64,000 bases of DNA from an uncultured delta proteobacterium (GCA_963771465.1 CAVYTU010000018.1:1-64000); one strand, 5' to 3'; positions 11,961-58,540 are shown, numbered from the stretch's first letter. A program made the numbers and translations. The notes: generated by a model not told the origin, from the sequence alone.

Positions 11961-12135
11961 AAAACCGTGTTCGTGATCGTGGTTCGTGATCGACGCAACA
12001 GGCATGAGGTGCGAGGCGGCCGGCCAAGCCGGCCGGCAGCCAATCACCGGGAGGTCGGCAGAGACGTTCGCGAGCAGACTCGGTATGCCGGATCAAGATG
12101 ATACTGGAAACCGGAGGAACGTTGCTCGATAATGT
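11961..12135 (+). pseudogene. Mosaic spacer: hexamer arm, heptamer repeat and degenerate RidA fragment
   Basis: aaaccgtgttcgtgatcgtggttcgtgatcg; aacaggcatgaggtgcgaggc; 12030-12135 resembles 5040-5155. Confidence 0.75.
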
Positions 12136-18426: not shown

Positions 18427-18897
18427 CTATGACATTGATTTTTGCCCTTCCCTGATCGTGCCGCGCCACGCGCCGCTTTCGTGGCCGCGGTTTTCGATGA
18501 ATTCTTTGAAGTGCTCAAGATCGTTTTCGATGCGTCTGGAAACCAAGCCAACCGCGTCGCCGACGTTTTCGATAAATCCCTGAGGATCGTAAGAAATCTC
18601 TAATGTCACCCGGGTGCGATCTTCCCCTAGTTTGGCGAAATCGACTTTACCCGAAGTGTACTCGCCGGACTCGGAGGTCCAGGTGATGCGGTCATCGGGG
18701 ATTTGTTCGGTGATCTTGGCGGTCCATTCTTTATCCACTCCGGCGATCTCCGCGCGCCAGTGAAGGCGCTGATCGTCGAGCTGTCGGACCTCTTTCACGC
18801 CATCCATGAACTTGGGAAATTCCTCGAACTGGGTCCATTGATTGTAGACGTGGCTGAGCGGGCAATCGACCTCAATCGATTTTTTAATGCGTTCCAT
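18427..18897 (-). CDS. SRPBCC / polyketide-cyclase family protein, copy 1
   Basis: VYNQWTQFEEFPKFMDGV, ITEQIPDDRI. Confidence 0.9.
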   Translation of the reverse strand: MERIKKSIEVDCPLSHVYNQWTQFEEFPKFMDGVKEVRQLDDQRLHWRAEIAGVDKEWTAKITEQIPDDRITWTSESGEYTSGKVDFAKLGEDRTRVTLEISYDPQGFIENVGDAVGLVSRRIENDLEHFKEFIENRGHESGAWRGTIREGQKSMS

Positions 18898-29482: not shown

Positions 29483-29965
29483 CTATCGCTCTCTTACCGC
29501 GTCGATTTTTTGTCCTTCTCTGATCGTACCGCGCCACGCGCCGCTTTCGTAGCCGCGGTTTTCGATAAATTCTTTGAAGTGCTCAAGATCGTTTTCGATG
29601 CGTCTGGAAACGAAGCCGGCCGCGTCGCCGGCGTTTTCGATAAATCCCTGAGGATCGTAAGAAATCTCTAATGTCACCCGGGTGCGATCCTCCCCTAGTT
29701 TCGCGAAATCTACCATCCCAGAAGTGTACTCGCCGGACTCAGACGTCCAGGCGATGCGATCATCGGGGATTTGTTCGGTGATCTTGGCGGTCCATTCTTT
29801 ATCCACTCCGGCGATCTCCGCGCGCCAGTGAAGGCGCTGATCGTCGAGCTGTCGGACTTCTTTCACGCCATCCATGAACCTGGGAAATTCTTCAAACTGC
29901 GTCCATTGATTGTAGACGTGGCTGAGCGGACAATCGACCTTAATCGATTTTTTTATACGTACCAT
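29483..29965 (-). CDS. SRPBCC family protein, copy 2
   Basis: Near-identical to 18427..18897. Confidence 0.9.
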   Translation of the reverse strand: MVRIKKSIKVDCPLSHVYNQWTQFEEFPRFMDGVKEVRQLDDQRLHWRAEIAGVDKEWTAKITEQIPDDRIAWTSESGEYTSGMVDFAKLGEDRTRVTLEISYDPQGFIENAGDAAGFVSRRIENDLEHFKEFIENRGYESGAWRGTIREGQKIDAVRER

Positions 29966-39500: not shown

Positions 39501-42500
39501 ATGGAAAAGGCGACGTGTAACACTATCCAGTGCGACGAATTGCTTGAAGCTAAAGCAGCGGTCGCCGAGAACTCGCTTGAAACGACGATCCTCGCGTCCG
39601 GTCGAGAACGGCGGGTCACCGACGCGGAGACCTTCGGTTCGTCGTGTTCGGCAAATCCCCAGACGAGCGCGCGAGTCGAATCCTACGGCCTGTCTCCAAT
39701 CCAAAAAGGGATGCTGTTTCATCATCTCGATGCGCGCGATTCAGGCGTCGACGTCGAGCAAGTCATCTGTGCTCTCGATGAAGCGCTACACAAAGAAGCG
39801 TTTGGCAGCGCTTGGCAAGGCGTAATCAATCGCCATGCGATTCTGCGGACGTGCTTTCGCTGGCAAGCTGGCGAAGCCCAGCAAGACGTTCACGATAGTG
39901 CCACGATTGAGTTGGAAGAAATTGACTGGTTAGGAGTGCGGTCGGAGGAACAGGATGAGCGTTGGTCTCGATTGCTCGTAACTGATCGACGGCGCGGCTT
40001 CGACTTGTCCGTAATGCCGTTGATGCGCCTCACACTCATCGCGCTGGCGCCAAATCGCTTTCGAGTACTCTGGACGTTTCATCACATACTGCTTGATGGT
40101 CGCTCTTTCCCGATCATTCTCCGCGAAGTCTTCGATGCCTATTCGGCCATTCGTGAGGGCAAACGGATCTCACTCTCTGAACCGAAGCCCTATCGCGAAT
40201 ACATCGACTGGCTAAGTCAACAAGACTTTGCGCGCTCGGAGGAATATTGGCGCGAAGCATTAAGAGGGTTTCGCACGCCTGTCGAGATCAGTTTGCCGAA
40301 CACACCAGAGGACCCGGCCGAAATTAGAGGGGCAAAGGACTTCCGTGAGCTGCGCTTTTCGCGCGCGTTAACGGATAAACTGAGAGCTTTCGCCAAAAAA
40401 CATCAACTCACGCTAAACACGCTCCTCCAGGGTGCCTGGGCTTTGCTGCTGCATCATTACAGCGGCGAAGAGGATATCGTTTTTGGCGCTACTCGAGCGT
40501 GTCGTCGTTCTGCTCTCGAAGGCGCCGACGACAGGGTCGGCCTATTTATCAATACTCTCCCGATGCGGGTTTGCGTGAGTTCTGACGGAATGCTTGCCGA
40601 TTTGTTTCACGCGTTACGTGAACAACAAACCTCTATGCGGGATTACGAGCATACGCCTTTGTCCCAGGTCCAGCGTTGGAGCGAGGTGCCACGCGGAAGA
40701 CAGTTGTTTGAGAGCATCATCGTATTCGAAAACTATCATCTGGATACGTTGTTGCGGGCCCAGGGCGGCGAATGGCTGAACCGGCATTTCGACTATTTCG
40801 GACAGACCAACTATCCGTTGACGGTGATCGCTTACGCCGATCCTGAATTTTTGCTGCGCATCGAATACGATTGCAGGCGTTTCAACGGCGGTTCGATTAC
40901 CAGAATGGCCGGTCATTTAGCTAACCTACTGGAAGGGTTGTGCGGCGAAGGCATGCAGCGCGTTCACGACGTGCCGCTGGCAACGCGTGAAGAACAAGAG
41001 CAGTTGCTCGAAGCTCCGATGAGTGATTCGATTAATGCCGCGAGCGATACGTGTCTGCACCAACTTTTCGAAGCGCAAGTCGAGAAGACGCCGCATGCGG
41101 TAGCAGTCGTGTGCCAAGGGAAATCCCTCACGTATGGGGAGTTGAACCGAGAGGCGGAGAAGATCGCTTATCGGCTGCGACGATCGGGCGTGGGGCCGGA
41201 GGTTCTCGTCGGACTGTGCGTTGATCGCTCCGTGGAGCTGGTGATCGGTATTGTCGGTATCCTCAAAGCCGGCGGCGCGTATCTGCCGCTCGATCCGAGT
41301 TACCCTAAAGAGCGGCTTGCGTTCATGCTCGACGACGCCAGTGTTTCGGTCCTGCTCACGCAAGCCCATCTGACCGGTTGTTTACCCGATCATCAGGCCG
41401 CCGTCATCCATTTTGATCATGACGACGAAACAACTTGCCCCGAGCCATTATCGGCGGAAACCGAACTTGCCGGCGTAAACCCCGACAATCTTGCCTACGT
41501 GATCTACACTTCGGGTTCCACGGGCAAGCCCAAGGGCGTGCTGATTACCCACCGCAACGTCGCGCGCCTGTTCCCAGCGACTGCGCCTTGGTTTGGATTT
41601 GACCCTAGCGACGTCTGGACGCTGTTCCACTCCTACGCGTTCGATTTTTCCGTCTGGGAGATGTGGGGTGCGCTATTGCACGGCGGACGATTGGTCATCG
41701 TGCCCCATGACGTGAGCCGTTCGCCGGAAGAGTTCGCCGCTCTCATCGCAAGAGAGCAGGTAACCGTTCTTAACCAGACGCCTTCAGCCTTCCGTCAACT
41801 GTTGCCGTACCTGGCCGCCTCCATTGAGCCCGACGCATTATCCCTGCGCTACGTGATTTTCGGCGGCGAAGCGTTGGATGTCAAAACGTTAAAGCCTTGG
41901 TTTGACCGTTATGGTGAAAGAACGCCACGGCTCGTCAACATGTATGGGATCACCGAAACCACCGTGCATGTTACTTACCGACCGATCACTCGAGCCGATC
42001 TGGATGGCCACGTTGGCAGCGTGATCGGCAGCCCGATACCGGATCTGGGGCTTTATCTACTCAATTCACATCGCCAGCCTGTTCCCGTCGGCGTTGCCGG
42101 CGAGATTTACGTCGGCGGAGCCGGAGTTGCGCGCGGCTACCTTCAGCGACCGGAACTGACGGCAGAGCGATTTATCGTCGATCCATTCAGCCGTGATGCG
42201 CAGGCTAGGCTTTATCGAACCGGTGATCGCGCTCGGCGATTGCCCAACGGCGATCTCGAATATCTTGGCAGAATCGATCAGCAAGTTAAAATTCGCGGCT
42301 TTCGCATTGAGCTCGGTGAGATCGAGTCGGAACTTAGTCGGCATCCTGCGGTAAAACAAACTGTCGTCGTTGCCAGGGAAGACCTACCCGGAGACAAGCG
42401 TTTGGTGGCTTACTTTGTCGCGGATCGAGATCTGGACCTGGCCGATCTTCGCGCCGGTCTCTGCGCTCAGCTTCCGGCGCACATGGTGCCCGCCGCCTTT

Positions 42501-45500
42501 GTAAGAATGGCGACTTTGCCGCTCACGAGCAACGGTAAAATCGATCGCGCCGCCCTGCCAAAACCGGATCGAGGTCGGTGCGAGCTTGGCCGGCGCCGCG
42601 CCGCACCTCGGTCCATCGAGGAAGAAAAGCTCTGGCAAATCTGGAGCGGGGTTCTCGGCATTGACGACCTTGGAATCGAGGACAACTTCTTCGAGCTCGG
42701 CGGCGATTCGATCTTGGCCATCCAAGTGATCAGTAAGGCTCGACAGATGGGATTGCAACTTGCGCCCAAAGATTTATTTCAGCATCCAACGATTGCCGAT
42801 TTGGCTGCCGTGCCGGCTACAAGCTCGCCAACGAAAGCCAACGAAGGTGTTACCGTCGGACGAGTTGATCTCACACCGATTCAGCGCTGGTTCTTTGAGC
42901 AGAATCTCGCGGAAATGCATCACTGGAATCAGGCCTTCCTGTTTGAAACCGTGCAACCGTTGGCTGCCGACGTTTTAGAGGATGCGCTGAATGAAGTCGT
43001 GCGCCACCACGACGTATTTCGTCTCGGCTTCACGCGCTGCGGGACGACTTGGGAACAAGCCTATGGGGACGAACAACGGCCGTTTTCCCTTTTGCGTATC
43101 GACCTGTCGATGGTCGCTGAGTCCGAGCAGGAAAACGAGATCGAATCGAGCGCTGCCAAACTTCAGGGATCTCTAGATCTTGCGTCGGGCAAGCTTGTCC
43201 GCGCCGCCTACTTCGATCTCGGCGAACATCGCTCTCCAAGGCTACTATGGATCGTGCATCATCTGATCGTCGACGGCGTCTCGTGGCGCATTCTGCTTGA
43301 GGATCTCGAAACCGCGTACGTGAAATTCCTTGCTAAGCAGCCGGTCTTGTTGCCGGCCAGAACGAGCTCCTACCAGACCTGGGCTGCGACGTTGAACAAA
43401 TACGCAGAGAGGCCTGAGGCGCAGGACGAGCTCAATTACTGGAGCCGGGTACTGGACGGTCCGACGACGGAATTGCCGTGCGATTCGGCGGCGGATTCGA
43501 TGAATTTAGAAAACCGCGCCGAAACCGTTACGGTGCGGCTCAGCCGCGCGGAAACGCGCGCGCTCCTTCAGCAGGTTCCGGCTGCCCAACATGCAGAAAT
43601 CAACGATATTTTGTTGGCCGCGCTTGCCGACTGTTTGAAAACCTGGACGAGAGCCGATTCGTTGCTGGTGGATTTAGAAGGGCATGGTCGAACTGAGATC
43701 GCTGAAAATATCGACGTATCCCGTACCGTCGGTTGGTTTACGACTATTCATCCGCTGCGACTCGATCTGTGTCGGGGCGCGACGCTGGCCGAGAGGGTCA
43801 AAACTACCAGAGACCGCCTTCGTGCTGTTCCCGATAAGGGTTTAGGTTTCGGTATTCTGCGCTACGGAATTGCCAACCCGCAAGCGCGCGCCGCGCTCGC
43901 TGCGTTAGCTCAGCCGGAGATTTCGTTCAATTACCTCGGTCAATTCGACCAAGTGGTCGCCGGTTCTTCGTTGTTTCGGTTCGCCAAAGAATCCTGCGGT
44001 CCTTGGCATAGCCCTTTGGCGCAGCGACGCTATCTTCTGGAAATACTTTCGCTGGTTGCCAACGGCTGCTTCGAAGTCCGGTGGATATTCAACTCCAATC
44101 GACACCGACGAACTACCATCGAAGCCCTTGCGCAAGGATATCTGACGGCGCTGCGTTCGCTGATCAGCGATCGTGCCACGGTTCATCCGGTCGAGGTCGT
44201 TCCAGCCGACTTCCCGCTCGCGCTATTAGATCAGCCAACGCTCGATCGCGTGGCGCGCGATTATCCCAATCTCGAGGATGTCTACCCGCTGTCCTCGATG
44301 CAAAAACTATTTCTCTCGATGGATGCGGTGGGCTCGAAACTAGGACTCGAACAATGGCATTACCAACTGTGCGGCCGGCTCAACATTGACGCTTTCAAAT
44401 GCGCGTGGCAGCGAGTGATTCAGCGTCACCCGATTTTGCGCAGCGCATTTCTCGCGGATGGATTGAGCGAACCGTTGCAGGTGGTGTCACGCCACGTCGA
44501 GCTGTCGTGGGATAACCTCGATTGGCGAACACAACCCGCCGAGGAACAGAAACTGCGCTGGCAAAGCTTGCTCCAGTCTGACCGCCATCGCGGCTTCGAC
44601 CTGCACCGAGCGCCGCTGCTGCGCCTCATACTTATCCGGACTACAGACGACATCTATGATTTCCTTTGGACCACCCATCATATGCTGATCGATGGCTGGT
44701 CATGGCCGGTGCTCTTCAGCGAGCTGGCGCAATTCTACGAAGAGGCTTGCGTCGGGCGGGAAGCGGAGATCGAACCACCTTGCCCGTACCGTAATTACAT
44801 CGCTTGGTTGGGACAGTGCGACGCCAAAAAGGCCGAAGCGTTTTGGCGCGGCGAGCTCAAAGGCATCAATGCTCCGACCCGTATCGGCCTCGATGGTCGG
44901 CGCGATGAATTATCGTCCCGCGCAGACGAGTTTGGCGATGCGAGCATCCATTTGTCGAGCGAAACCACTTTGGCACTGCAGACGCTTGGCCGCTGCGAAC
45001 ACTTAACTCTCAACACCTTGATGCAAGGCGCTTGGGCCTTGCTTCTCAGCCGATATAGCGGACAGCGGGATATTCTTTTCGGCGCTGCTTGTTCCGGTCG
45101 CTCGGCCGAAATTACGGGAATCCACGCCATGGTCGGCCCGTGCGTCAACGACCTCCCGGTCCGAGTGCAAATTGTGCCGCGTTCGACGCTGGGCGGTTGG
45201 TTGAGAAATTTTCAGGCAAGACAATTCGCCGCCAGCGAATTCCAATACAGCTCGGTAATCGAAGTTCATGGGTGGAGCGAAGTTCCGATGCGTCAGCAGC
45301 TGTTCGAGAGTTTGCTCGTGTTTCAAAACTATGCGACGGGTAGCGCCTGCCAACAGCTCGGCCCCGAGATCCAAATCCGCATGGTAGCGGCTCCGGAAAC
45401 GACAAACTATCCGTTGACGTTGACAATCGTGCCCGGAAACCAATTGGGCGTGAAAATTCTTTACCGGGCGGACCGATTCTCCAGCGTGTCTATTCGATCC

Positions 45501-45989
45501 GTTGTGCAAGATCTCCAACGCTTGATCGAAGCGATGGTTCGTAACCCGCAACGGACGACTGCCGAAATTCTCGCCGACTTGCCACCGCTCCAGCACCGAG
45601 GGCCAGAGGAGCTTGCCGCGGCCACGAACATTCATACCGCCGTCCGTATGCTGAGCTCGGCCGGCCCGGCGCCGCAAACGAATTCAGAAAAAATCGTATC
45701 GGCCATTTGGCGTGGTCTCTTCGAGGTGCCTCAGGTCAATCTTGACAGCAATTTTTTTGACCTGGGCGGTCATTCCTTGCTGCTCGTCGAAATGCACAAA
45801 CAACTGGAAAATTCACTCGGTCGCCGCTTGCCGATTGTACAATTATTTCAGCATGCGACGGTGCGCTCGTTGGCTCGCTACCTGACTGCCGAGTCGCCGC
45901 GGAAAACGAATCTCGAGGAGTACCGCAATCGTGCACAACGCCAGCAACGCGCCTTGCCCCAGCGGTCGCGTGCGGGACGGAAAAACTGA
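39501..45989 (+). CDS. NRPS C-A(Thr)-PCP-E-C-PCP
   Basis: HHILLDG; YTSGSTGKPKG, DFSVWE, NMYGITETTVH; GGDSI; HHLIVDGVSW, EGHGR, FNYLGQ; HHMLIDG; GGHSL. Confidence 0.95.
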   Translation: MEKATCNTIQCDELLEAKAAVAENSLETTILASGRERRVTDAETFGSSCSANPQTSARVESYGLSPIQKGMLFHHLDARDSGVDVEQVICALDEALHKEAFGSAWQGVINRHAILRTCFRWQAGEAQQDVHDSATIELEEIDWLGVRSEEQDERWSRLLVTDRRRGFDLSVMPLMRLTLIALAPNRFRVLWTFHHILLDGRSFPIILREVFDAYSAIREGKRISLSEPKPYREYIDWLSQQDFARSEEYWREALRGFRTPVEISLPNTPEDPAEIRGAKDFRELRFSRALTDKLRAFAKKHQLTLNTLLQGAWALLLHHYSGEEDIVFGATRACRRSALEGADDRVGLFINTLPMRVCVSSDGMLADLFHALREQQTSMRDYEHTPLSQVQRWSEVPRGRQLFESIIVFENYHLDTLLRAQGGEWLNRHFDYFGQTNYPLTVIAYADPEFLLRIEYDCRRFNGGSITRMAGHLANLLEGLCGEGMQRVHDVPLATREEQEQLLEAPMSDSINAASDTCLHQLFEAQVEKTPHAVAVVCQGKSLTYGELNREAEKIAYRLRRSGVGPEVLVGLCVDRSVELVIGIVGILKAGGAYLPLDPSYPKERLAFMLDDASVSVLLTQAHLTGCLPDHQAAVIHFDHDDETTCPEPLSAETELAGVNPDNLAYVIYTSGSTGKPKGVLITHRNVARLFPATAPWFGFDPSDVWTLFHSYAFDFSVWEMWGALLHGGRLVIVPHDVSRSPEEFAALIAREQVTVLNQTPSAFRQLLPYLAASIEPDALSLRYVIFGGEALDVKTLKPWFDRYGERTPRLVNMYGITETTVHVTYRPITRADLDGHVGSVIGSPIPDLGLYLLNSHRQPVPVGVAGEIYVGGAGVARGYLQRPELTAERFIVDPFSRDAQARLYRTGDRARRLPNGDLEYLGRIDQQVKIRGFRIELGEIESELSRHPAVKQTVVVAREDLPGDKRLVAYFVADRDLDLADLRAGLCAQLPAHMVPAAFVRMATLPLTSNGKIDRAALPKPDRGRCELGRRRAAPRSIEEEKLWQIWSGVLGIDDLGIEDNFFELGGDSILAIQVISKARQMGLQLAPKDLFQHPTIADLAAVPATSSPTKANEGVTVGRVDLTPIQRWFFEQNLAEMHHWNQAFLFETVQPLAADVLEDALNEVVRHHDVFRLGFTRCGTTWEQAYGDEQRPFSLLRIDLSMVAESEQENEIESSAAKLQGSLDLASGKLVRAAYFDLGEHRSPRLLWIVHHLIVDGVSWRILLEDLETAYVKFLAKQPVLLPARTSSYQTWAATLNKYAERPEAQDELNYWSRVLDGPTTELPCDSAADSMNLENRAETVTVRLSRAETRALLQQVPAAQHAEINDILLAALADCLKTWTRADSLLVDLEGHGRTEIAENIDVSRTVGWFTTIHPLRLDLCRGATLAERVKTTRDRLRAVPDKGLGFGILRYGIANPQARAALAALAQPEISFNYLGQFDQVVAGSSLFRFAKESCGPWHSPLAQRRYLLEILSLVANGCFEVRWIFNSNRHRRTTIEALAQGYLTALRSLISDRATVHPVEVVPADFPLALLDQPTLDRVARDYPNLEDVYPLSSMQKLFLSMDAVGSKLGLEQWHYQLCGRLNIDAFKCAWQRVIQRHPILRSAFLADGLSEPLQVVSRHVELSWDNLDWRTQPAEEQKLRWQSLLQSDRHRGFDLHRAPLLRLILIRTTDDIYDFLWTTHHMLIDGWSWPVLFSELAQFYEEACVGREAEIEPPCPYRNYIAWLGQCDAKKAEAFWRGELKGINAPTRIGLDGRRDELSSRADEFGDASIHLSSETTLALQTLGRCEHLTLNTLMQGAWALLLSRYSGQRDILFGAACSGRSAEITGIHAMVGPCVNDLPVRVQIVPRSTLGGWLRNFQARQFAASEFQYSSVIEVHGWSEVPMRQQLFESLLVFQNYATGSACQQLGPEIQIRMVAAPETTNYPLTLTIVPGNQLGVKILYRADRFSSVSIRSVVQDLQRLIEAMVRNPQRTTAEILADLPPLQHRGPEELAAATNIHTAVRMLSSAGPAPQTNSEKIVSAIWRGLFEVPQVNLDSNFFDLGGHSLLLVEMHKQLENSLGRRLPIVQLFQHATVRSLARYLTAESPRKTNLEEYRNRAQRQQRALPQRSRAGRKN

Positions 45990-45991
45990 TC

Positions 45992-48900
45992 ATGTCCCAT
46001 AGCGAGCACTACGATCCAAAGGCCGGCATCGCCATCGTCGGCATGGCCGGACGTTTTCCCGGCGCGAACAACATCGACGAGTTTTGGCGAAATCTCGTCG
46101 CTGGGGTGGAGAGCATCTCGCATTTTACCGAAGCCGAGTTGGAGTTCTCGCCGCTGGAAGATGCCGGCCTGCGCAGGGATTCAAATTATGTGAAGGCGCG
46201 CGGCACGATCGACAATGCCGACTTATTCGACGCCGCGTTTTTCGGTATCAATCCGCGCGAGGCGGAAACGATGGATCCGCAACAACGAGTGTTTCTCGAG
46301 ACCGCTTGGGTGGCGCTCGAACACGCCGGTTACGACGCACGAATGTTTAAAGGCCTGATCGGCATTTTCGCGGGCATGAGCAACAACAGTTACTTTCCAT
46401 TACTGACGGCGGCGGGCGGAGTCGATAGAGCGGCATCCCTGCAAGCCATGCTAGGAAACGAAAAAGATTATCTTACGACGCGAGTGTCCTATCATCTTAA
46501 CCTGCGCGGACCGAGCATTAGCGTGCAAACCGCATGCTCGAGCTCGCTGGTGGCGGTTTACCAGGCGTTTCAGAGCTTGCTCGGCTATCAGTGCGATATG
46601 GCGCTCGCCGGCGGCGTCTCCGTTGTCGTGCCGCAGAAACGCGGTTATCTCCACTATGAAGGCGCAATCACATCTCCGGACGGCCATTGTCGGGCCTTTG
46701 ATGCCGCGGCGCAGGGAACGGTGTTTAGCAACGGCGCCGGCATTGTCGTCCTGAAGCGCCTGCAGGACGCGCTTGACGATGGCGATCAAATCTTCGCGGT
46801 AATCAAGGGCGCGGCGGTAAACAACGATGGCTCCGATCGAGTCAGTTTCGCTGCGCCCAACGTGAACGGCCAAAGCGAAGCGATCGCTATGGCTCAAGCC
46901 TTGGCTGGTTTCGACCCGGAAACGATTTCCTACATTGAAGCTCATGGCACGGCAACGCCCCTCGGCGATCCGATTGAAATAGCCGGACTGACGCAGGCGT
47001 TTCGTCTCGGCACGGACGGCAACGGATTTTGCGCCATCGGGTCGGTGAAGACCAATATCGGACATCTCGACGTCGCCGCCGGTGTGGCGGGATTGATCAA
47101 GACCGCGCTGGCGCTCAAGCACAAGAAGATTCCGGCAAGCCTGCACTACAAAAGTCCCAATCCGAAAATTGACTTCGCCAACACGCCCTTTTACGTCAAT
47201 GCCGAGTTGAGCGATTGGCCGGCAGGAACAACGCCCCGCCGGGCCGGCGTCAGCTCATTCGGCTCCGGCGGCACCAACGCCCATGTGCTTCTCGAAGAAG
47301 CGCCGGCGCTGGAACCTTCCGCCGCGGCGCGATCGGCGGAGTTGATCGTGCTTTCTGCGAAGACCGCAGAAGCGCTCGATCGGACAACGAAAGATTTGGC
47401 AGAACACTTGGCGAACCATCCCGAGCTCAACTTGGGTGATGTCGCGCACACGCTGCACTGCGGTCGGTCGGCGTTTGCCCATCGACGTATGGTCGTCTGT
47501 CGCGATCTTGCTGACGGCGCGGATGCTCTTCGCAGCATGAACCCCAAGCGCGTCGTCACGAACCATAACGAACACAAAGCGCCGTCCATCGCTTTCATGT
47601 TTCCCGGCCAAGGCGCTCAGTACGTCAACATGGGCCGCGGACTCTATGAAGAAAGTTCCTTTTTCCGCAACCAAGTGGCCGAGTGCGCCGAATCGCTCGC
47701 CGCCAAGTTAGGGCTGGACATCCGGACGGTTTTGTATCCAGCAGCCGCTCACCGAGAGCGCGCGGAAGAGCTCCTGTCGCAAGCTTCAATCACACAGCCG
47801 GCGCTGTTCGTCGTCGAGTATGCGCTCGCCAGGTTGTGGATCGAGTGGGGTATTGAGCCGAGTTTCGTGGTTGGCCACAGCTTGGGCGAGTACGTCGCGG
47901 CGTGCCTAGCTGGGGTGTTCTCGCGCGACGATGCATTGAACTTGGTCGTTGAGCGCGCTCGTCTTGTGCAGTCGCTTCCCAGCGGCTCCATGCTCGCGAT
48001 CCGTTTATCCGCTTCTGAAGTTGAACGGAGCTTGAGCAAAGAGCTTTCGATCGCAGCGATCAACAGCCCGACGCTGACCGTCGTTTCCGGGCTCGTCGAA
48101 GCCATTCAAACGTTAGAGAATGAGCTAACAACCGAGAAGATTCCCTGCCGCCGTCTCGTGACATCCCACGCGTTTCACTCGGCGATGCTCGATCCCATCC
48201 TGCCGCCTTTTCGAGAAATCGTGCGCGGCATTCGCCTTGGCGAGCCGCGCTTACCCTGGGTTTCCACGCTGACCGGCGCCATCATCACCGTCGCGGAGGC
48301 GATGGATCCGGAATACTGGGTGAGACAGTTGCGCGAGCCGGTTCACTTCGCCGACAGCGTTGGCGTTCTGCTCAAGGATGAAGTCCACGCTTTGCTCGAA
48401 GTAGGGCCGGGTCAAGGGTTGGCCACGCTCGCACGCCAACACCCGAGCAAACGCCCAGACCAAGAAATTTTCCTCTCTTTACTATCCAGTCAGACTGCCG
48501 GCGGGGATTTAGACGGCATGCTCAATTCATTGGGTCGTTTGTGGTTGGCGGGCGCGGAAGTTGATGGGTCGCGGATGGACGATGAAAAACGACGTCTGCG
48601 CGTAGCCTTGCCCAGCTATCCATTCGACCGCAAGCGCTTCTGGCCGTCGGTGCGAAGGCTTGCCGGTGACGAAAAGAATCCGCCGCCGGAAGCGAGGAAT
48701 GGAAAAATTTCATTACCTGTGGTTGCCCCGCCCGCTGCAGCGATGATCGCAGAGCCGAATGATGTAAGCGCGTTTCACGACTTGAACGGGGTAGCGCCGA
48801 CACGCTGTCACCGCGAGGACGTCTTGGAGCGGCTGCAAACGCTTTTTAGCGAGATCTCGGGCATCGCCGCTGAAGATCTGCTGCCACACGCTTCGTTTCT

Positions 48901-51900
48901 GGAACTCGGGCTCGATTCGCTCCTGCTGACGCAAGCAAGCGCTGCGCTACTCAAGCGCTTCGGCGTGAAAGTGTCGTTCCGCCAGCTCCTCGAGGAATTG
49001 TCGAGCTTGGAAACCTTGGCCGACCATCTCGCAGCTTCTATCCCACAAAGCGAGGAAATGCACAAACGCGTCGCTCGGCCACCGGTCTGCAACCAGCGGG
49101 AAATGAACGACCAACCTTCGGTTGTCGGAAGCCCAGCCGTGTTCGGCGCGCTCCCGGCGGATCTGTTTAGCTTGGCACAGATAGCCAACTCTGACGGCAC
49201 GGCGCTCGAGCGAATCTTCGCCAGGCAATTGGATCTGATGCAGCAACAACTCGATATGCTAAAGACGAGCGGCGGTGTAAATCCAGGCGGCAATATAGCT
49301 GTCAACTCTGCGCCGAAAGCTTCGTCGAGCAAGATCGAACCGATTGCGACATTAGCCGCGGCAGGGGAAGTCGGAAGGAGACCTATCGGGGAAAAAGGTT
49401 TTGGACCGTACAAACCGATCCAGACGGGCAAACAGCATCAACTGACCGAGCGCCAGCAGCAATATCTAAACGACTTCATCGCACGCTACACGACGCTCAC
49501 GCGCAAATCGAAGATACTTACCGCTGAGCACCGGGCTCATCTCGCCGATCCGCGCACGGTTGCGGGATTCCGCTCGACGTGGAAGGAGCTTATCTATCCG
49601 GTCGTGACCGAACGTTCCGCCGGCTCGAAACTTTGGGACGTGGACGGCAACGAATACATCGATTTGACCAATGGTTTCGGCGCGATTCTCTTTGGTCACG
49701 GGCCGGAGTTCGTGACGACGGCGCTTCAAGAGCAAATCAAAAAGGGTATGGAGATCGGTCCGCAATCGCCGCTCGCGGGTGAAGTTGCGGCGCTACTCTG
49801 TGAGCTCACCGGCATGGAGCGGGCAGCGTTCTGCAATACCGGCTCGGAGGCCGTGCTGGCGGCGCTACGTATTGCTCGCACGGTAACCGGGCGCGATAAG
49901 ATCGCCATGTTCACCGGTGATTACCATGGCATTTTTGATGAGGTGGTCGTGCGCGCGGTCGGCGGCACAAAGTCGCGTCCAGCGGCGCCCGGCATACCGT
50001 CGAGCATGGCCGAAAACGTCATCGTGCTCGAGTACGGTGATCCGGCGTCCTTGCCAATTCTACGCGACCACGCTCATGAGTTGGCGGCGGTCATCGTCGA
50101 GCCGGTGCAAAGTCGCCGACTGGACCTGCAACCGAAGGAATTCTTGCGGGAGCTTCGTGAGCTCACGGCACGAGCGGGAACAGCGCTGATTTTCGACGAA
50201 ATCGTCACCGGTTTTCGCTCGCATCTCGGTGGCGCGCAGGCGATCTTCGACGTGCGCGCGGATATCGCGACCTACGGCAAGGTCATCGGCGGCGGACTGC
50301 CGATCGGTATCGTCGCCGGCAAAGCGGAGTTCATGGACGCCCTCGACGGCGGCCCATGGATGTTTGGCGACGACTCGGCGCCCGAAGTCGGAATGACGTT
50401 TTTTGCCGGAACGTTTATGCGTCACCCGCTGGCACTCGCCGCGACCAAAGCGTGCCTGACGCACCTCAAAGAGAAGAGCCCGGAGCTGCAGGAACGATTA
50501 AGTCACCGAACCAAAAACTTGGTCGACGGCCTGCTCGCACACGCCAAGGAACTTCAGATACCGGTACGCATCACGCACTTTAGCTCTTTGTTCGCCTTCG
50601 AATTTCCACCCGAGCTCCCTTTGGCGAGTCTCTTTTATCCGATGATGCGCGCGCGCGGGATTCACATCTGGGAAGGCCGCCTCGGCATACTCACTACGGC
50701 GCATACGGATCAGGATATCGATCGCATCCTCGTCGCTTTCAGAGATTGCCTGGCGGAAATGCAGCACGCCGAATTCTTGCCGATAGCTGCAGTCGGGGAG
50801 AACAGCGATGATCGAGCGGACGCGGACGAGGATGGCGCCGATTCGGTCATCGCGGCCACCGACGGCCAGCGCGAAATTTGGCTCGCCGCGCAAATGAGCG
50901 ACGATGCGTCTCGGGCGTTTACCGACTGCTTGACCGTGGAGTTGCGTGGACCGCTGCAAATCGTCGCGCTGAACCGCGCCATTCAGGAGCTAGTAACGCG
51001 CCATGATTCGTTGCGGATGACCTTCAGCGACGACGGCGAATCCCTGTGGGTGACGCCGCAAGTCGAGATCGATCTACCCGTAATCGATCTCGGCCCCGTC
51101 AACCTGGAAGAACGATCGCAGCGATTGGCGCAGATCGTAACCGAGCAGCGCACGAAAACATTCGACTTGAGCCGAGAATTCATGTTGCGCAGCGTCGTCT
51201 TACGAATGGCGGCCGACCATCACGTATTGGTTATGACGACTCACCATGCCGCCGTCGATGGTTGGTCTTTCGGCGTGTTGTTGGCGGAGCTTGGCAGACT
51301 TTATTCGGCAAAGTGTCGCAGTGAGGTATCCGCGCTACCGTCGGCTCCGCAATTCGCCACGTATGCCCGCCGCGAGATCGCAGCACGGCGATCTGAAGAG
51401 TGGAACGCAACGGAAAAATTTTGGCTCGATCAATTCACGACTCTGCCGCCGCCGCTGGAGCTGCCACTCGATCGACCACGGGCCAATGTGAAGAGTTACC
51501 TGGCCCGGCGACGCCACGTCGTTTTGCCGAGCGCGCGCGGCCGGGAGCTACGCCGGTTCGCGGCGCAACATGGTGCCACACTGTTCTCGACTTTGCTGGC
51601 CGCCTTCAACGTTCTGCTCCACCGTCTGAGCGGTCAGGATGACATCGTTGTCGGAATCTCCGTGGCAGGACAGTTGGCCGGCGATACGCCGGACCTGGTC
51701 GGCCACTGCGTGAATTTCCTGCCGTTGCGCCATCGAATCGATGCCAACCGGAGCTTTACAACCTATCTTTCGGCGGTAAAGAGTTTGGTTTTAGACGCCC
51801 ACGATCATCAAAGCTATACCTACGGCAGTTTGTTGCGGAAGCTCAAGCTACCGCGCGACGGCGGCCGCGCGCCGCTGATGTCGGCGAGCTTCAATTTGGA

Positions 51901-54900
51901 CCGGGCGATCGAAAAACCATTCCTTGACGGTCTCGATGTCGAGGTTGAAATTCAAGAGCGGTCGGCGATCAATTTCGACTGCAGCTTGAATATTGTCGAT
52001 GATGGCGAAGATCTGTCGATCAATTGGCAGTACAACGCCGATCTTTTCGATGATGAAACGATCGAGCGCTGGCTGGATCATTATCAAACTCTATTGGCGG
52101 AAATCACCGCTGATCCGAAACGCTCATTGGCGGACCTGCCGTTGTTGACAGACGCCGAACAACACCGGCTGCTCGTGGAGTGGAACGACACCCACCGCGA
52201 ATATCCTGAAGGCCGGTGCCTCCACCAGCTATTTGAGGAGCAGGTGACACGCACACCCGAAGTGGTTGCTGTCGTTATTGACGACCAACAGCTTACCTAC
52301 GGAGAGCTCAATAGACAGGCCAACCAGCTCGCCCATCACCTACGCAAGCTAGGGGTAGGACGGGATATATTAGTCGGCCTTTGCTTAGAGCGATCCTTAG
52401 ATCTGGTCGTAGCTTGTTTGGCAATACTCAAAGCAGGTGGAGCCTACGTTCCCTTGGACTCGGAGTATCCAAAGGATCGACTGGCTTACATGATAAAGGA
52501 TACCCGAGCGCCAGTGTTGCTAACCCAACAGCACCTGGTAGAAAAACTTCCCGTGCAGAGTTCTCGGATCCTGTGTATCGACTCGGATTGTAAAGCCGTC
52601 GGTAAGGAAAGCGGGGATAACCCTGTTAACTTTTCCACACCCGAGAGCCTCGCCTACGTGATCTACACCTCTGGATCTACCGGGAGTCCGAAGGGAGTGA
52701 TGGTCTCCCACAGCGCTATCGTCAATTTCATGCTGTGGACGCAGGAGACATTTCCCCTGAACGAAACCGACCGCGTGCTGCAAAAGACACCGATCAGCTT
52801 CGACGCATCGGTGTGGGAATGCTACGCGCCACTTCTTGTCGGTGCCCGACTCGTGATGGCCCGCCCTGGTGGAAATCAGGACGGTGGTTATTTGGCCAAA
52901 CTCATTGGCGAACAAAAAATCACCGCATTGAAAGTTGTTCCCTCGCTGCTGCGTATGCTTCTCGATGAGCCGGCGCTATCCGATGCCACGAGCCTACGGC
53001 GAGTTTTCTGCGGAGGAGAGGCGTTAACGATAGAGCTTCAGCAAAAGTTTCATGCGCGGCTAACGGCCGAATTATGGAACCTTTATGGTCCCACCGAGAC
53101 GACGGTTGACGTCGTGTTTTACGAGTGTAAGCGCGACGCCCGTAGCGATCTAGTGCCCATTGGACGTCCGATAGCGAACACAGAGGTTTATATCCTGGAC
53201 TCAGAGCTAAGGCCTACTGCTGTTGGGCTTGCGGGGGAGCTCTATGTTGGAGGAACCAGCTTGGCGCGTGGCTATCTCAATCGCCCGGATTTAACCGCAG
53301 AGAAATTCATTCGCAATCCTTTCAGTGACGACCCTGGTGCGCGGCTGTATAGGACCGGAGATTTGGTCCGCTATCGATCCGATGGGAACATCGTGTATCT
53401 TGGTCGTATCGACAATCAAATCAAGCTGCGTGGCTTCCGCATCGAGCCGGGCGAGATCGAAGCGATTCTTAGTGAGCATCAGGCAGTGCGCGAGGCGATC
53501 GTCATCGCGCGTGAGGATACGGCTGGGAATAAGCGTCTGGTTGCTTATCTCGTCATGAAGGTTGGCTCTACGATCGCCGAGAACGATCTCCGGGTCCATC
53601 TGAAAAAGAAATTGCCTCAGTACATGATGCCCGCTGCATTCGTTGTGCTCCCACGTCTTCCACTTACCGCAAACGGAAAGTTAGACCGCAGAGCCTTGCC
53701 GGCGCCCGACAATCCGACTCTGTCGGCAAATACGCCATGTGTCGCGCCACGCAACGATGTCGAGCGCCTCATCGAGCGCATCTGGTGCGACGTGCTCGGG
53801 ATCCAGCGGCTCGGCATTGAAGAAAATTTCTTTGACATCGGCGGGCATTCTATTCTCGCAACTCGAGCCATGGCTCGACTGCGGCAAGAGTGCCAAATAA
53901 ATCTGCCGCTCAGAGCGCTGTTTGAATGTCCGACCATCGCCGAACTTGGTGCCAGACTCTTAGCGGAACTTGGAGCGAATGATGCGGCGGCCGCCAAAGC
54001 AGACCAGATGTACTCCCATCTATTCGAACTTAAATCCGGCGATCCGAAGAAGCCTGTGTTTTTTCTGCCCGGCGGTATCGGTGGCGACGAAGAATTCCTG
54101 GTGTATGCCAGGTTCCTGCATCATGTCGATACGGATCACAAATTTTACGGGATGCGGTCGCGGAGCGCGAACGGAATCCTTAAGTGTCAGTCGAGCGTCG
54201 CCCAGATGGCCGCAGACTACATTCGCGAGATTCAAAAGCTTCAACCTCGCGGGCCGTACTCCATCGTCGGGAATTGCATCGGTGGCATCGTCGCGTACGA
54301 GATCGCCCGTCAGCTGGAGGCGCAAGGACAGAAAATCGCTTTGCTAGCTCTGATGGATACCAATAGACCGTCGTTAAGTCTCTATCTAAGTTACCGCTGG
54401 AAGCGCATCGGCGAAATTAAAATGCTGATCGCCCCTTGGCATCGCTTCAAGAATTCTTATTATCTGGCACGGGCCCGCTATCATGGGCGCAAGATATGTG
54501 GCCTGCGTTGGCACGACCTGTTGCCGTATTCATGCTCACGGCTGGCAACGGTGATCCAAGCGGTGCAACAGCCGCATGCGCAAAAAAAGGCCGAGCCGTA
54601 TCGTGATATGGATCTTCCCACTAAATGCAGACCTGCAATTCAGGATACCTATGAACGAGCGCTGCGTCGTTATCGGCCTGGACCCTTCCATGGACGAATG
54701 ACGCTGATCGTGAACCAGGAAGCTCACCGCCGAAATCCGGACCTCGGCTGGTCGAATCTCGTTTCGGAAGGAATCGAAATTTACAAAGCGCGCGGTGATC
54801 ACGAGAGCTATATCCGAGAACACGTACAGGCGGTGGCCGAACAACTAGAATCAATTCTGGCAAAGTCGGAAATAGACCCTCCGGGCCGCGTCGGCAATAA

Positions 54901-54979
54901 GTCAATTCCTCAGGACGCGATACGGAAAGGGTTGGGCTGGAGTCAATTTGATCCGGCGACGAGTTGGTTTATGCTTTAG
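45992..54979 (+). CDS. Hybrid PKS/NRPS KS-AT-ACP-aminotransferase-C-A-PCP-TE
   Basis: TACSSS/HGT/NIGH; GHSLG, HAFH; LGLDSL; FDEIVTGFR..TYGK; HHAAVDG; YTSGSTGSPKG; GGHSI; GNCIGG. Confidence 0.95.
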   Translation: MSHSEHYDPKAGIAIVGMAGRFPGANNIDEFWRNLVAGVESISHFTEAELEFSPLEDAGLRRDSNYVKARGTIDNADLFDAAFFGINPREAETMDPQQRVFLETAWVALEHAGYDARMFKGLIGIFAGMSNNSYFPLLTAAGGVDRAASLQAMLGNEKDYLTTRVSYHLNLRGPSISVQTACSSSLVAVYQAFQSLLGYQCDMALAGGVSVVVPQKRGYLHYEGAITSPDGHCRAFDAAAQGTVFSNGAGIVVLKRLQDALDDGDQIFAVIKGAAVNNDGSDRVSFAAPNVNGQSEAIAMAQALAGFDPETISYIEAHGTATPLGDPIEIAGLTQAFRLGTDGNGFCAIGSVKTNIGHLDVAAGVAGLIKTALALKHKKIPASLHYKSPNPKIDFANTPFYVNAELSDWPAGTTPRRAGVSSFGSGGTNAHVLLEEAPALEPSAAARSAELIVLSAKTAEALDRTTKDLAEHLANHPELNLGDVAHTLHCGRSAFAHRRMVVCRDLADGADALRSMNPKRVVTNHNEHKAPSIAFMFPGQGAQYVNMGRGLYEESSFFRNQVAECAESLAAKLGLDIRTVLYPAAAHRERAEELLSQASITQPALFVVEYALARLWIEWGIEPSFVVGHSLGEYVAACLAGVFSRDDALNLVVERARLVQSLPSGSMLAIRLSASEVERSLSKELSIAAINSPTLTVVSGLVEAIQTLENELTTEKIPCRRLVTSHAFHSAMLDPILPPFREIVRGIRLGEPRLPWVSTLTGAIITVAEAMDPEYWVRQLREPVHFADSVGVLLKDEVHALLEVGPGQGLATLARQHPSKRPDQEIFLSLLSSQTAGGDLDGMLNSLGRLWLAGAEVDGSRMDDEKRRLRVALPSYPFDRKRFWPSVRRLAGDEKNPPPEARNGKISLPVVAPPAAAMIAEPNDVSAFHDLNGVAPTRCHREDVLERLQTLFSEISGIAAEDLLPHASFLELGLDSLLLTQASAALLKRFGVKVSFRQLLEELSSLETLADHLAASIPQSEEMHKRVARPPVCNQREMNDQPSVVGSPAVFGALPADLFSLAQIANSDGTALERIFARQLDLMQQQLDMLKTSGGVNPGGNIAVNSAPKASSSKIEPIATLAAAGEVGRRPIGEKGFGPYKPIQTGKQHQLTERQQQYLNDFIARYTTLTRKSKILTAEHRAHLADPRTVAGFRSTWKELIYPVVTERSAGSKLWDVDGNEYIDLTNGFGAILFGHGPEFVTTALQEQIKKGMEIGPQSPLAGEVAALLCELTGMERAAFCNTGSEAVLAALRIARTVTGRDKIAMFTGDYHGIFDEVVVRAVGGTKSRPAAPGIPSSMAENVIVLEYGDPASLPILRDHAHELAAVIVEPVQSRRLDLQPKEFLRELRELTARAGTALIFDEIVTGFRSHLGGAQAIFDVRADIATYGKVIGGGLPIGIVAGKAEFMDALDGGPWMFGDDSAPEVGMTFFAGTFMRHPLALAATKACLTHLKEKSPELQERLSHRTKNLVDGLLAHAKELQIPVRITHFSSLFAFEFPPELPLASLFYPMMRARGIHIWEGRLGILTTAHTDQDIDRILVAFRDCLAEMQHAEFLPIAAVGENSDDRADADEDGADSVIAATDGQREIWLAAQMSDDASRAFTDCLTVELRGPLQIVALNRAIQELVTRHDSLRMTFSDDGESLWVTPQVEIDLPVIDLGPVNLEERSQRLAQIVTEQRTKTFDLSREFMLRSVVLRMAADHHVLVMTTHHAAVDGWSFGVLLAELGRLYSAKCRSEVSALPSAPQFATYARREIAARRSEEWNATEKFWLDQFTTLPPPLELPLDRPRANVKSYLARRRHVVLPSARGRELRRFAAQHGATLFSTLLAAFNVLLHRLSGQDDIVVGISVAGQLAGDTPDLVGHCVNFLPLRHRIDANRSFTTYLSAVKSLVLDAHDHQSYTYGSLLRKLKLPRDGGRAPLMSASFNLDRAIEKPFLDGLDVEVEIQERSAINFDCSLNIVDDGEDLSINWQYNADLFDDETIERWLDHYQTLLAEITADPKRSLADLPLLTDAEQHRLLVEWNDTHREYPEGRCLHQLFEEQVTRTPEVVAVVIDDQQLTYGELNRQANQLAHHLRKLGVGRDILVGLCLERSLDLVVACLAILKAGGAYVPLDSEYPKDRLAYMIKDTRAPVLLTQQHLVEKLPVQSSRILCIDSDCKAVGKESGDNPVNFSTPESLAYVIYTSGSTGSPKGVMVSHSAIVNFMLWTQETFPLNETDRVLQKTPISFDASVWECYAPLLVGARLVMARPGGNQDGGYLAKLIGEQKITALKVVPSLLRMLLDEPALSDATSLRRVFCGGEALTIELQQKFHARLTAELWNLYGPTETTVDVVFYECKRDARSDLVPIGRPIANTEVYILDSELRPTAVGLAGELYVGGTSLARGYLNRPDLTAEKFIRNPFSDDPGARLYRTGDLVRYRSDGNIVYLGRIDNQIKLRGFRIEPGEIEAILSEHQAVREAIVIAREDTAGNKRLVAYLVMKVGSTIAENDLRVHLKKKLPQYMMPAAFVVLPRLPLTANGKLDRRALPAPDNPTLSANTPCVAPRNDVERLIERIWCDVLGIQRLGIEENFFDIGGHSILATRAMARLRQECQINLPLRALFECPTIAELGARLLAELGANDAAAAKADQMYSHLFELKSGDPKKPVFFLPGGIGGDEEFLVYARFLHHVDTDHKFYGMRSRSANGILKCQSSVAQMAADYIREIQKLQPRGPYSIVGNCIGGIVAYEIARQLEAQGQKIALLALMDTNRPSLSLYLSYRWKRIGEIKMLIAPWHRFKNSYYLARARYHGRKICGLRWHDLLPYSCSRLATVIQAVQQPHAQKKAEPYRDMDLPTKCRPAIQDTYERALRRYRPGPFHGRMTLIVNQEAHRRNPDLGWSNLVSEGIEIYKARGDHESYIREHVQAVAEQLESILAKSEIDPPGRVGNKSIPQDAIRKGLGWSQFDPATSWFML

Positions 54980-57067: not shown

Positions 57068-57208
57068 GGAAAACTTAGCACGTCAACTCTGCCGACATTG
57101 GGGCTTCCGTCGCTTGCGTCGTTGGAGCACAGCACATGTCGGCAGACCGGTGAGTTACGCCCATGGTCGACTGATCAGCGCCGACAACACGCTAAAGAGC
57201 AACAAATT

Positions 57209-58540
57209 ATGACGCACGAAGTTCAACCGAGACAGACACCTGGGGTTTTCACCAGGAGCTTTTATTTCGCCGTGGCGGTATTGATCGCGTTGAATCTTTT
57301 CGCGCGCTCGATCGAAGCTGCGGGCTATCAATATCCGTATCACGATCCTTACCTAGCGACGGCGACTAGTGCTATTTTAAACGACGATGGCGCCACCGCG
57401 CAGGTTGATTCCACCATCATTCATGTGCCCGGGCTCCCAGGCAGAAACCGTTTGCCAACTCTCGAAGGACGCGGTGACGTAAGTCTTGCTTTGTATCGCC
57501 AAAGCCGAGCAGCACCGCTGCTTTTTATTCTCGCGGGTCTCGGCTCCAGCCCCTATTTTGGCGTTGCGCCGTATTTAGCGAGCTTGTTCTATCGAGAAGG
57601 CTTCCATGTGGTGATTTTACCTTCGCCGATGAGTTGGAATTTTGCATTGTCGGCCAGCCGCAACGGCGCGCCGGGTTATGCGCCGGAGGACGCGCGTGAT
57701 TTATATGAAGTCATGCAAAAAACTCTGACGACCGTGAGATCACGGTATGCCGTCAAGACTAGCTCGATTAACTTCATAGGAGTTAGCCTGGGCGCACTCC
57801 AAGGCGCCTATCTCAGCGTGATCGATGCCGACGCGGGAAAGATCGGCGTCAATAAGTATCTCCTCGTCAACCCGCCGGTGGATCTCGCTTACGCCGTCAA
57901 GACAATTGATGAATGGGGCGGCTTGAAAGAAAAATTCGGCAGGGAGAAATCTCAGGGAATCGTCTCCAAAGCGCTTGCCATCGTCAATTCCTTTGCCGAG
58001 GAACGCCAGGACAAACCTGCGGTCTTCGAACGATTGGCCAAGAAGTTGCGTGGCTTCACGAAGGAAGAGTTCCAATACCTCATCGCCGAGAATTTACAGA
58101 GCCAACTGCCTGAGCTCATTTACGTGACCCAAATCATCCACGATCAGAAGTTGCTTACAGCGCCGAAAGACGACAAGAGAAAACGGCTGGAGGAAGCTAA
58201 GGATTTCACGTATACGAAATACAACCAGCTAATTGGCATGCCCTGGTGGCAAAAACAAATCGGCGATCCACAAGCCGATCTGGATGACTTCATGCAGCGC
58301 GGTTCTTTGGCAGCCATAGTCGATCGGCTGCGCGACAACCCCAAAGTGCACATCCTTCACAATGCCGATGATGTCTTGGGCGAGAGAAAATCCATCCAAG
58401 CGCTGAAAGATAACTTGGGCGACCGAGTGACGCTCTTCCCCTACGGCGGACATCTCGGCAACCTCTGGTACTCGGAAAATAAAGAATTCGCTGTCAGATA
58501 CTTCCAGCCGCAGGCTTACGCGCATACGCATAATAATTGA
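57209..58540 (+). CDS. Secreted alpha/beta hydrolase, copy 2
   Basis: Paralog of 26504..27769; GVSLG, HNADD, GGHLGN. Confidence 0.8.
   Translation: MTHEVQPRQTPGVFTRSFYFAVAVLIALNLFARSIEAAGYQYPYHDPYLATATSAILNDDGATAQVDSTIIHVPGLPGRNRLPTLEGRGDVSLALYRQSRAAPLLFILAGLGSSPYFGVAPYLASLFYREGFHVVILPSPMSWNFALSASRNGAPGYAPEDARDLYEVMQKTLTTVRSRYAVKTSSINFIGVSLGALQGAYLSVIDADAGKIGVNKYLLVNPPVDLAYAVKTIDEWGGLKEKFGREKSQGIVSKALAIVNSFAEERQDKPAVFERLAKKLRGFTKEEFQYLIAENLQSQLPELIYVTQIIHDQKLLTAPKDDKRKRLEEAKDFTYTKYNQLIGMPWWQKQIGDPQADLDDFMQRGSLAAIVDRLRDNPKVHILHNADDVLGERKSIQALKDNLGDRVTLFPYGGHLGNLWYSENKEFAVRYFQPQAYAHTHNN

Follow-up and report, generated by a model that had tools for sequence, protein, structure and literature searches.

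What would an assembly line of only two genes, part nonribosomal peptide synthetase (NRPS) and part polyketide synthase (PKS), be able to make, and is it still functional? We asked this of a gene pair in the genome (6.9 Mb in 19 contigs) of an uncultured delta proteobacterium. The window, i.e. the whole stretch of DNA analysed, is 64,000 nucleotides (nt) long and lies on contig C18 (CAVYTU010000018.1:1-64000). The gene pair occupies positions 39501 to 54979. On balance, we are inclined to read it as a functional and self-contained two-gene hybrid NRPS-PKS line, whose predicted product is a small peptide that carries a vicinal-diamine unit and is probably N-acylated.

Domain order and catalytic motifs

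The genes and their domains are listed below, with the evidence for each. Abbreviations are: C, condensation; A, adenylation; T, thiolation (carrier); E, epimerisation; KS, ketosynthase; AT, acyltransferase; ACP, acyl carrier protein; AMT, aminotransferase; TE, thioesterase; ORF, open reading frame; aa, amino acids; PLP, pyridoxal phosphate.

39501-45989 (+): gene 1 (P0001), NRPS, C-A-T-E-C-T, 2162 aa; ORF and Pfam/NCBIfam
39681-41009 (+): C1, first domain of the line, HHILLDG at residue 194; Pfam and motif, D-clade by PDB matches
41067-42539 (+): A1, code DFWNIGMVHK (Thr); Pfam and code alignment
42627-42809 (+): T1, GGDSI; Pfam and motif
42843-44270 (+), bounds approximate: E domain, HHLIVDG (residue 1253), EGHGR, FNYLGQ; motifs and TIGR01720 at residues 1429-1583
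44271-45620 (+), bounds approximate: C2, HHMLIDG (residue 1726), D-clade, after E and with no A domain next
45729-45911 (+): T2, GGHSL, carrier of the A-less module and donor to the KS; Pfam and motif
45992-54979 (+): gene 2 (P0002), PKS-NRPS, KS-AT-ACP-AMT-C-A-T-TE, 2995 aa; ORF and Pfam/NCBIfam
46025-47149 (+): KS, Cys-His-His (TACSSS, EAHGT, GHLD); Pfam and motifs
47594-48412 (+): AT, GHSLGE and HAFH (malonyl-type); Pfam and motifs
48824-49036 (+), bounds approximate: ACP, LGLDSL; Pfam and motif
49433-50782 (+): AMT, class-III PLP aminotransferase domain, Lys in YGKVIGGG; Pfam and alignment to the MycA AMT
50846-52174 (+): C3, L-clade type, HHAAVDG; Pfam and PDB matches
52232-53680 (+): A2, code DAWKFGLVDK; Pfam and code alignment
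53771-53959 (+): T3, GGHSI; Pfam and motif
54053-54856 (+): TE, Cys2762 (GNCIGG), Asp in LMDT, His in GDHES; Pfam and motifs

The domain order had been proposed in an initial annotation of this DNA, and Pfam and NCBIfam searches confirmed it for both genes. Pfam recognised in gene 1 three Condensation stretches (one of them being the E domain), one AMP-binding and two PP-binding domains, and in gene 2 the KS, the KS-AT linker, the AT, two PP-binding domains, Aminotran_3, Condensation, AMP-binding and Thioesterase. All the catalytic motifs looked for are present in both genes; the motif search thus bore out the claim that they are intact, KS and AMT included. The absence of a ketoreductase (KR) was verified as well: no KR, dehydratase (DH), enoylreductase (ER) or methyltransferase family was found by Pfam in the two genes at an E-value of 0.001, and between AT and ACP, as between ACP and AMT, there is too little room for such a domain to be hidden. 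The HAFH motif announced for the AT was found, and marks it as a malonyl-type domain. The E domain has the HHxxxDG, EGHGR and FNYLGQ motifs together with TIGR01720, and is preceded by a GGDSI carrier. The 15.5 kb operon is open in frame throughout, and the stop codon of gene 1 is separated from the ATG of gene 2 by 2 nt (TGA-tc-ATG), which means that the two genes are coupled.

An aminotransferase of the MycA type

Aligned to the crystallised AMT of MycA (6kfm), the AMT gave an E-value of 3e-141 over 450 residues (49-498 of a 521-aa query), with the Lys aligned in YGKVIGGG. The next matches in PDB, at 1e-60, were glutamate-1-semialdehyde aminomutases. In MycA, Gln is the amine donor and the ACP-bound beta-ketothioester the acceptor (excerpt of PMC3870968). 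In gene 2 the AMT is placed between ACP and C, past a KS, with no KR, DH or ER, and this is the layout of a MycA-type in-line beta-aminating module. Malonate extension followed by transamination to a 3,4-diamino acid, as first proposed, is still the straightforward prediction for this module.

A populous family with a nearly constant first A-domain code

Relatives of gene 2 were searched with residues 900-1700 of P0002. Among 8000 candidates scored, 6584 had an E-value of 0.001 or better, and proteins of predicted KS-AT-ACP-AMT-C-A-T order number in the thousands. The nearest ones were P0003 (95% identity), P0004 (68%) and P0005-P0009 (57-62%). A locus scan covering one genome for each species gave 638 pattern matches, 637 of which were relatives; 79 loci, with titles from many phyla, were kept, and the window domains were placed on them by tblastn. 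Most of the 79 have an A-T pair directly ahead of the KS. The order of the window, (C-)A-T-E-C-T-KS-AT-(ACP)-AMT, was found in six (L003, L004, L014, L042, L072 and L073), of which L003 and L004 have one extra C-A-T module. The complete order, C-A-T-E-C-T-KS-AT-ACP-AMT-C-A-T-TE, is present in the same-genus genome G008 (locus L088), at 36-68% identity per domain. Altogether these seven other loci bear titles of metagenome-assembled genomes from four phyla, plus the one same-genus genome. The rarity implied by the initial annotation is not supported: beyond these seven genome loci, at least 29 protein clusters from metagenomes have the same order, and amino-acid-primed AMT modules already figure, without products, in a 2013 survey (excerpt of PMC3870968). 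We conclude that the family is widespread across soil bacteria and unstudied.

Homologues of gene 1 were taken from the best 120 proteins matched by the E-C-T part of P0001, 31 of which are shorter than 2200 aa. The full C-A-T-E-C-T order was found in 29 of the 31, the last T having no match in P0147 and P0235; in most of them the HHxxxDG and GGxS motifs were all found.

The A-domain codes were read by alignment to the code positions of the GrsA numbering. In this way we reproduced the Thr code that the initial annotation had given for A1 (DFWNIGMVHK). It is identical or one change away in 7 of the 8 loci of the same order, window included, L004 having a Ser-type code (DVWHISLVDK). Of the short homologues, 26 of 31 carry DFWNIGMVHK itself and 2 a variant with a single change; the remaining 3 read DTSSIGAVTK, DVWHISLIDK and DLFNCALTYK. 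The codes following the AMT differ between loci: DILQLGLIWK, twice, in L003 and L004 (Gly-type), DLFNNALTY- in L088 (Ala-like), DAFFLGITFK in L072 and DVWHFSLVD- in L073 (Ser-type). As for A2 of the window (DAWKFGLVDK), it presumably comes closest to Gln/Glu-type codes; its residue is left unassigned.

Gene 1 lacks an A domain in its second module: C2 ends about 40 residues before T2, which leaves no room for one, and the module is C-T only. The C preceding the KS is followed directly by T in 8 of 8 loci, window included, and together with the 29 of 31 homologues this argues for a conserved design and not for decay. The initial annotation had written the residue at this place as "(Y)", but it had not flagged the missing A domain; this absence, and the Cys described below for the TE, are corrections to it. 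A related layout was seen in a cyanobacterial NRPS of Brasilonema sp. CT11 (L081, 1-3300), where an A-less T-E-C-T is followed by a C and not a KS; its first T is 71% identical to T1 of the window.

Synthetase genes seem to be all that the family shares. Pfam analysis of 31 flanking ORFs of L003, L004, L072 and L014 detected no shared accessory gene: L003 has, immediately upstream, a phosphopantetheinyl transferase (PPTase), and in addition a separate TE bearing a docking domain; L004 has a glycosyltransferase and an IS66 transposase along with two hydrolases, L072 secretion ATPases, and L014 a deacetylase and a glycosyltransferase. With no flanking genes in common, the synthetase genes appear to travel as a self-sufficient unit.

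Condensation domains and thioesterase

C1 and C2 are 36% identical, and each is 25-29% identical to C3. The best solved matches of C1 and C2 were C domains of McyB, PvdL, bacitracin synthase 3, TycB and SrfA-C, those of C3 were Txo1, Txo2 and TycC. In a context table of 242 proteins, the C directly after an E was C1- or C2-like in 168 of 168 cases, the C directly after an AMT was C3-like in 108 of 108, and the C after a T without E was C3-like in 23 of 28. Given its D-clade matches and the type always found after E, C2 is of the DCL type, as expected past an E domain. C1 is the first domain of the line, and no module lies upstream in the window: it may be a starter C by position. Its matches are of the D-clade, with 8f7f (the surfactin starter C domain) and SrfA-C 2vsq scoring about equally; by best hits and context, starter and DCL are indistinguishable here.

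The nucleophile position of the TE is a Cys (GNCIGG) in place of the usual Ser. Of 10 relatives aligned, 8 also have Cys at this position and 2 have Ser. The best solved match is the TE of AB3403 (4zxh, E-value of 4.8e-16). ObiF and SulM have ring-forming Cys-TEs. A TE of this ring-forming kind was considered for the window and dropped: both enzymes were absent from 35 PDB matches at an E-value of 0.01, and the A2 code is neither Thr-like nor Dap-like (Dap, diaminopropionate), whereas this kind of TE goes with a beta-hydroxy or beta-amino last residue. Release may take place by hydrolysis, or by cyclisation onto a free 3-amine or a hydroxyl.

Proposed pathway

The line would work as follows. 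C1 would N-acylate Thr held on T1, the acyl donor coming from outside the cluster, and E would convert it to D-Thr. C2, a D-clade domain, would then couple acyl-D-Thr to the residue on T2, which would most likely be a Thr charged by A1. The KS would take the acyl-dipeptide from T2 and condense it with malonyl-ACP, and the AMT would turn the beta-keto group into an amine, yielding a 3,4-diamino-5-hydroxyhexanoyl unit with its 4-amine acylated. C3 would couple this unit to the residue selected by A2 (Glx-like), and the Cys-TE would free the product, by either of the two routes mentioned above. The most likely product predicted in this way is acyl-D-Thr-[3,4-diamino-5-hydroxyhexanoyl]-Glx, linear or cyclised.

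A1 is favoured as the loader of T2 because the two always share one protein, because A1 is the one constant specificity of the family, and because no other amino-acid A domain is conserved nearby (none was found in the examined flanks of L003, L004, L072 and L088). Ferrichrome synthetases and AmbB/AmbE are cases where one A domain serves an A-less module. C2-T2 has the composition of such a module, C-T without A, and for CmnI of capreomycin the A-less module is served by CmnA-A1 (excerpt of PMC12400406).

A wider proposal, tentative and in our judgement unlikely to hold in every part, is that the Thr-specific A1 charges both carriers flanking the E-C pair, so that acyl-D-Thr-L-Thr is converted to a 3,4-diamino-5-hydroxy acid. 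This acid would be an "aminostatine", the amino analogue of the transition-state mimic statine. The family would then make undescribed small (lipo)peptides, protease-inhibitor-like or metal-binding, with variable C-terminal residues, in several soil phyla.

Alternatives to the pathway

Several points weigh against the pathway just described. The loader of T2 may be A2, or an A domain acting in trans from a gene elsewhere. C1 is of the D-clade and DCL-like, so that the donor could be a peptide from another NRPS. The A2 code had no match in any of the open-access papers searched. In P0004-P0008, five of the closest relatives, the TE keeps the Cys, but GKDSGDM is read where the window has GDHES, in a region of uncertain alignment: either the catalytic His would be displaced, or the alignment is off. 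Finally, the cluster was found at more than 70% identity in none of the 18 same-genus genomes searched (a tally that includes the unpublished G005), which makes it accessory, and it could be silent. Just two of these 18 genomes have an embedded AMT: G008, at 66% identity over the AMT piece, and G014, where the architectures are different and the identities 61% and 62%; the other AMT matches in the genus were frames of about 430-480 aa, 34-40% identical, which were read as HemL.

If T2 were charged in trans, or by A2 of gene 2, the line would be the same but residue Y would not be Thr. This is the alternative that survives best, though we hold it to be unlikely. The genome has 43 AMP-binding matches, many of them in stand-alone A-T frames and one of these in the window (12135-14114, minus strand, 659 aa), and trans A domains are known to serve A-less modules in WS9326A (excerpt of PMC7539972). 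However, the seven related loci have no additional A domain conserved next to them, and the A-T protein of the window was rejected as loader. Its gene lies on the opposite strand at a distance of 25 kb, its code lacks the Asp235 that binds the alpha-amine in amino-acid A domains, and its paralogues form an array on contig C15, where 8 of the 9 A-T proteins compared are 33-45% identical to it and the ninth 25%.

The genes surrounding this stand-alone A-T are unrelated to it. The array itself is an unusual locus, because of so many consecutive A-T proteins without C. It lies on the minus strand of contig C15 of genome G000 (~1084700-1118600; L091, L092), as one operon with an A-T-C-A-T protein (1734 aa) and then nine stand-alone A-T proteins (626-676 aa); 8 of these 9 are mutually 34-58% identical and do not have the FD motif that is usual in amino-acid A domains. 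A thiamine pyrophosphate enzyme, a C-A-T and a C-A-T-TE follow.

Two further alternatives concern the C domains of gene 1, and both appear improbable. According to the first, C1 is an ordinary DCL and not a starter, gene 1 taking a D-configured peptide from another NRPS, with a larger product as the outcome. Its best matches (McyB, PvdL, bacitracin synthase 3) are C domains that follow E domains, the surfactin ones scoring about as well. C1-like domains occur 40 times after E in the 242-protein table, and L073 has further modules ahead of the A1 module. Against this, a C1-like domain is the first NRPS domain in L003, L004, L014 and L088, with no NRPS gene in the upstream DNA examined, and the 29 homologues are stand-alone proteins that begin with a C1-like domain.

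According to the second, C2-T2 adds no residue, but modifies Thr (for instance by dehydration, as a CmodAA domain would) or relays the chain, the diamino unit being then made from a single (D-)Thr. A point against this is that a free carrier thiol, which is what T2 would then offer, is not known to be an acceptor for C domains. In its favour, the donor module is specific for Thr or Ser, i.e. a beta-hydroxy amino acid, in 8 of 8 loci. CmodAA domains, which use Ser or Thr, belong to the same D-clade, where they form a group separate from dual E/C and DCL domains (corallorazine paper, excerpt of PMC11342130). Yet C2 matched the CmodAA of AmbE (7r9x) with an E-value of 5.7e-23, far weaker than McyB (4.3e-96) and the other McyB, bacitracin synthase 3 and PvdL matches (to 3e-74), which are domains of DCL context, and the canonical E before C2 fits a plain DCL. 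The dehydrating reading of C2 was dropped as main reading on this ground.

That the operon is a silent or decaying acquisition without product is very improbable: it is accessory within the genus, it has no regulator, transporter or PPTase alongside and its G+C content is slightly above that of the flanks (0.56-0.59 within the two genes vs 0.52-0.55), but the 15.5 kb frame is open with every motif intact, near-identical DNA is present in soil and rhizosphere metagenomes, and, as a weak hint, soil metatranscriptome contigs lie on both genes.

Occurrence in environmental samples

At least half of the 31-mers sampled from positions 44000-53900 were present in each of ten runs, which come from seven studies (soil, rhizosphere and one urban metagenome); the run with the most of them could be the source of the window itself. 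From run X1, a 4481-nt DNA contig covers 41615-46095, across the gene junction, with 2 differences. Two soil metatranscriptome libraries gave contigs at 95-100% identity on both genes, and also on the non-coding flanks, covering 27 of 30 bins for X19 and 11 of 30 for X20 (uncovered bins being uninformative, and DNA carry-over possible). Since the flanks are covered too, this is only a weak hint of transcription.

Surroundings of the gene pair

Upstream of the pair are BrkB, FtsH and ORFs without Pfam match; downstream are small ORFs without Pfam match, a 480-aa ORF, an amidohydrolase and a Rieske protein. Pfam analysis of the window neighbours found no transporter, tailoring enzyme, regulator or PPTase adjacent to the pair, which bears out what had been noted initially for transporter, tailoring and PPTase genes. 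PPTase-family frames exist in the genome on other contigs, C14 (240 aa) and C10. Scans for promoters and terminators in both operon flanks gave counts at or below the shuffled expectation. The 480-aa ORF (57098-58540, plus strand), 2 kb past the TE, has a GVSLG (GxSxG) motif without Pfam match and looks hydrolase-like; it is not kept beside the related loci.

Farther away in the window, two ORFs of the SRPBCC/polyketide-cyclase family, of ~156-160 aa and 11 kb apart (18427-18897 and 29483-29965, both minus strand), score near-equally in Pfam and are possibly a duplicated pair. An ORF with a 23S rRNA intervening-sequence protein domain (PF05635; 5460-6119, minus strand) lies amid several genes for solute-binding proteins.

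Comparison with known systems

The search of open-access papers found no characterised cluster or product of this gene order, in agreement with the initial annotation, which had not recognised the architecture. Orphan NRPS-PKS clusters are very common, and every single domain here has well-studied relatives, which limits the importance of the locus. If expressed, it would give a compact peptide with a vicinal diamine built on the assembly line, a motif that we did not find reported for this gene order. Since the operon has only 15.5 kb, no conserved helper genes and relatives that differ in their last residue, the family forms a tractable set for heterologous expression, and the loading of an A-less module placed between E and KS could be tested cleanly with it.

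MycA is primed with a fatty acid via an acyl ligase-ACP, with an AT acting in trans, and the iturin family consists of seven-residue peptides made by three synthetases. MycA and ItuA (mycosubtilin, iturin) have in common with gene 2 the order ACP-AMT-C-A-T, a close AMT homologue and the transamination of a beta-ketoacyl-S-ACP before NRPS condensation. They differ in that here the KS is fed by C-A-T-E-C-T (Thr code in A1, no acyl ligase), the AT is in cis, and a single residue is added after the AMT, with the Cys-TE in the same protein.

McyE extends a polyketide and carries a C-methyltransferase between AT and ACP. Like gene 2, McyE (microcystin) and PuwE-type proteins have KS-AT-ACP-AMT-C-A-T in one protein, and the cyanobacterial loci L007, L008, L011 and L013 are 56-59% identical to the window in the AMT. 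By contrast with McyE, no methyltransferase family was detected in gene 2 at an E-value of 0.001. The Puw line starts from a fatty acid, and neither McyE nor Puw has an upstream Thr-E-C-T unit. Puwainaphycin is made by an NRPS/PKS hybrid primed by a fatty acyl-AMP ligase (excerpt of PMC4219810).

A further group is that of the uncharacterised amino-acid-primed cassettes A-T-KS-AT-ACP-AMT. Their KS-AT-ACP-AMT core is the same and works on an aminoacyl instead of a fatty acyl chain, and in many of them a Thr-type A stands directly before T-KS (L021, L027, L049, L067, L079). Their loader is a bare A-T, whereas here an N-terminal C and a T-E-C insert are added and the donor would be an acyl-dipeptide. 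With CmnI and WS9326A (excerpts of PMC12400406 and PMC7539972) the locus shares an A-less C-T served by another A domain, as C2-T2 would be; the loading A domain was established experimentally in these systems, whereas here A1 is a candidate loader, and the A-less module stands between E and KS. The TE of AB3403 has a Cys at the same position (GWCFGG vs GNCIGG), and its DT and GDH motifs align, but AB3403 is a single C-A-T-TE module.

This is not an iturin- or microcystin-type cluster, since it lacks a fatty-acid ligase and a C-methyltransferase and adds a single residue past the AMT. The AMT belongs to the same domain family as those of MycA, McyE and Puw, and by homology the system is predicted to work like their beta-aminating modules. 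As an orphan member of a populous, unstudied family it makes a reasonable target for discovery, and we do not regard it as a new kind of system.

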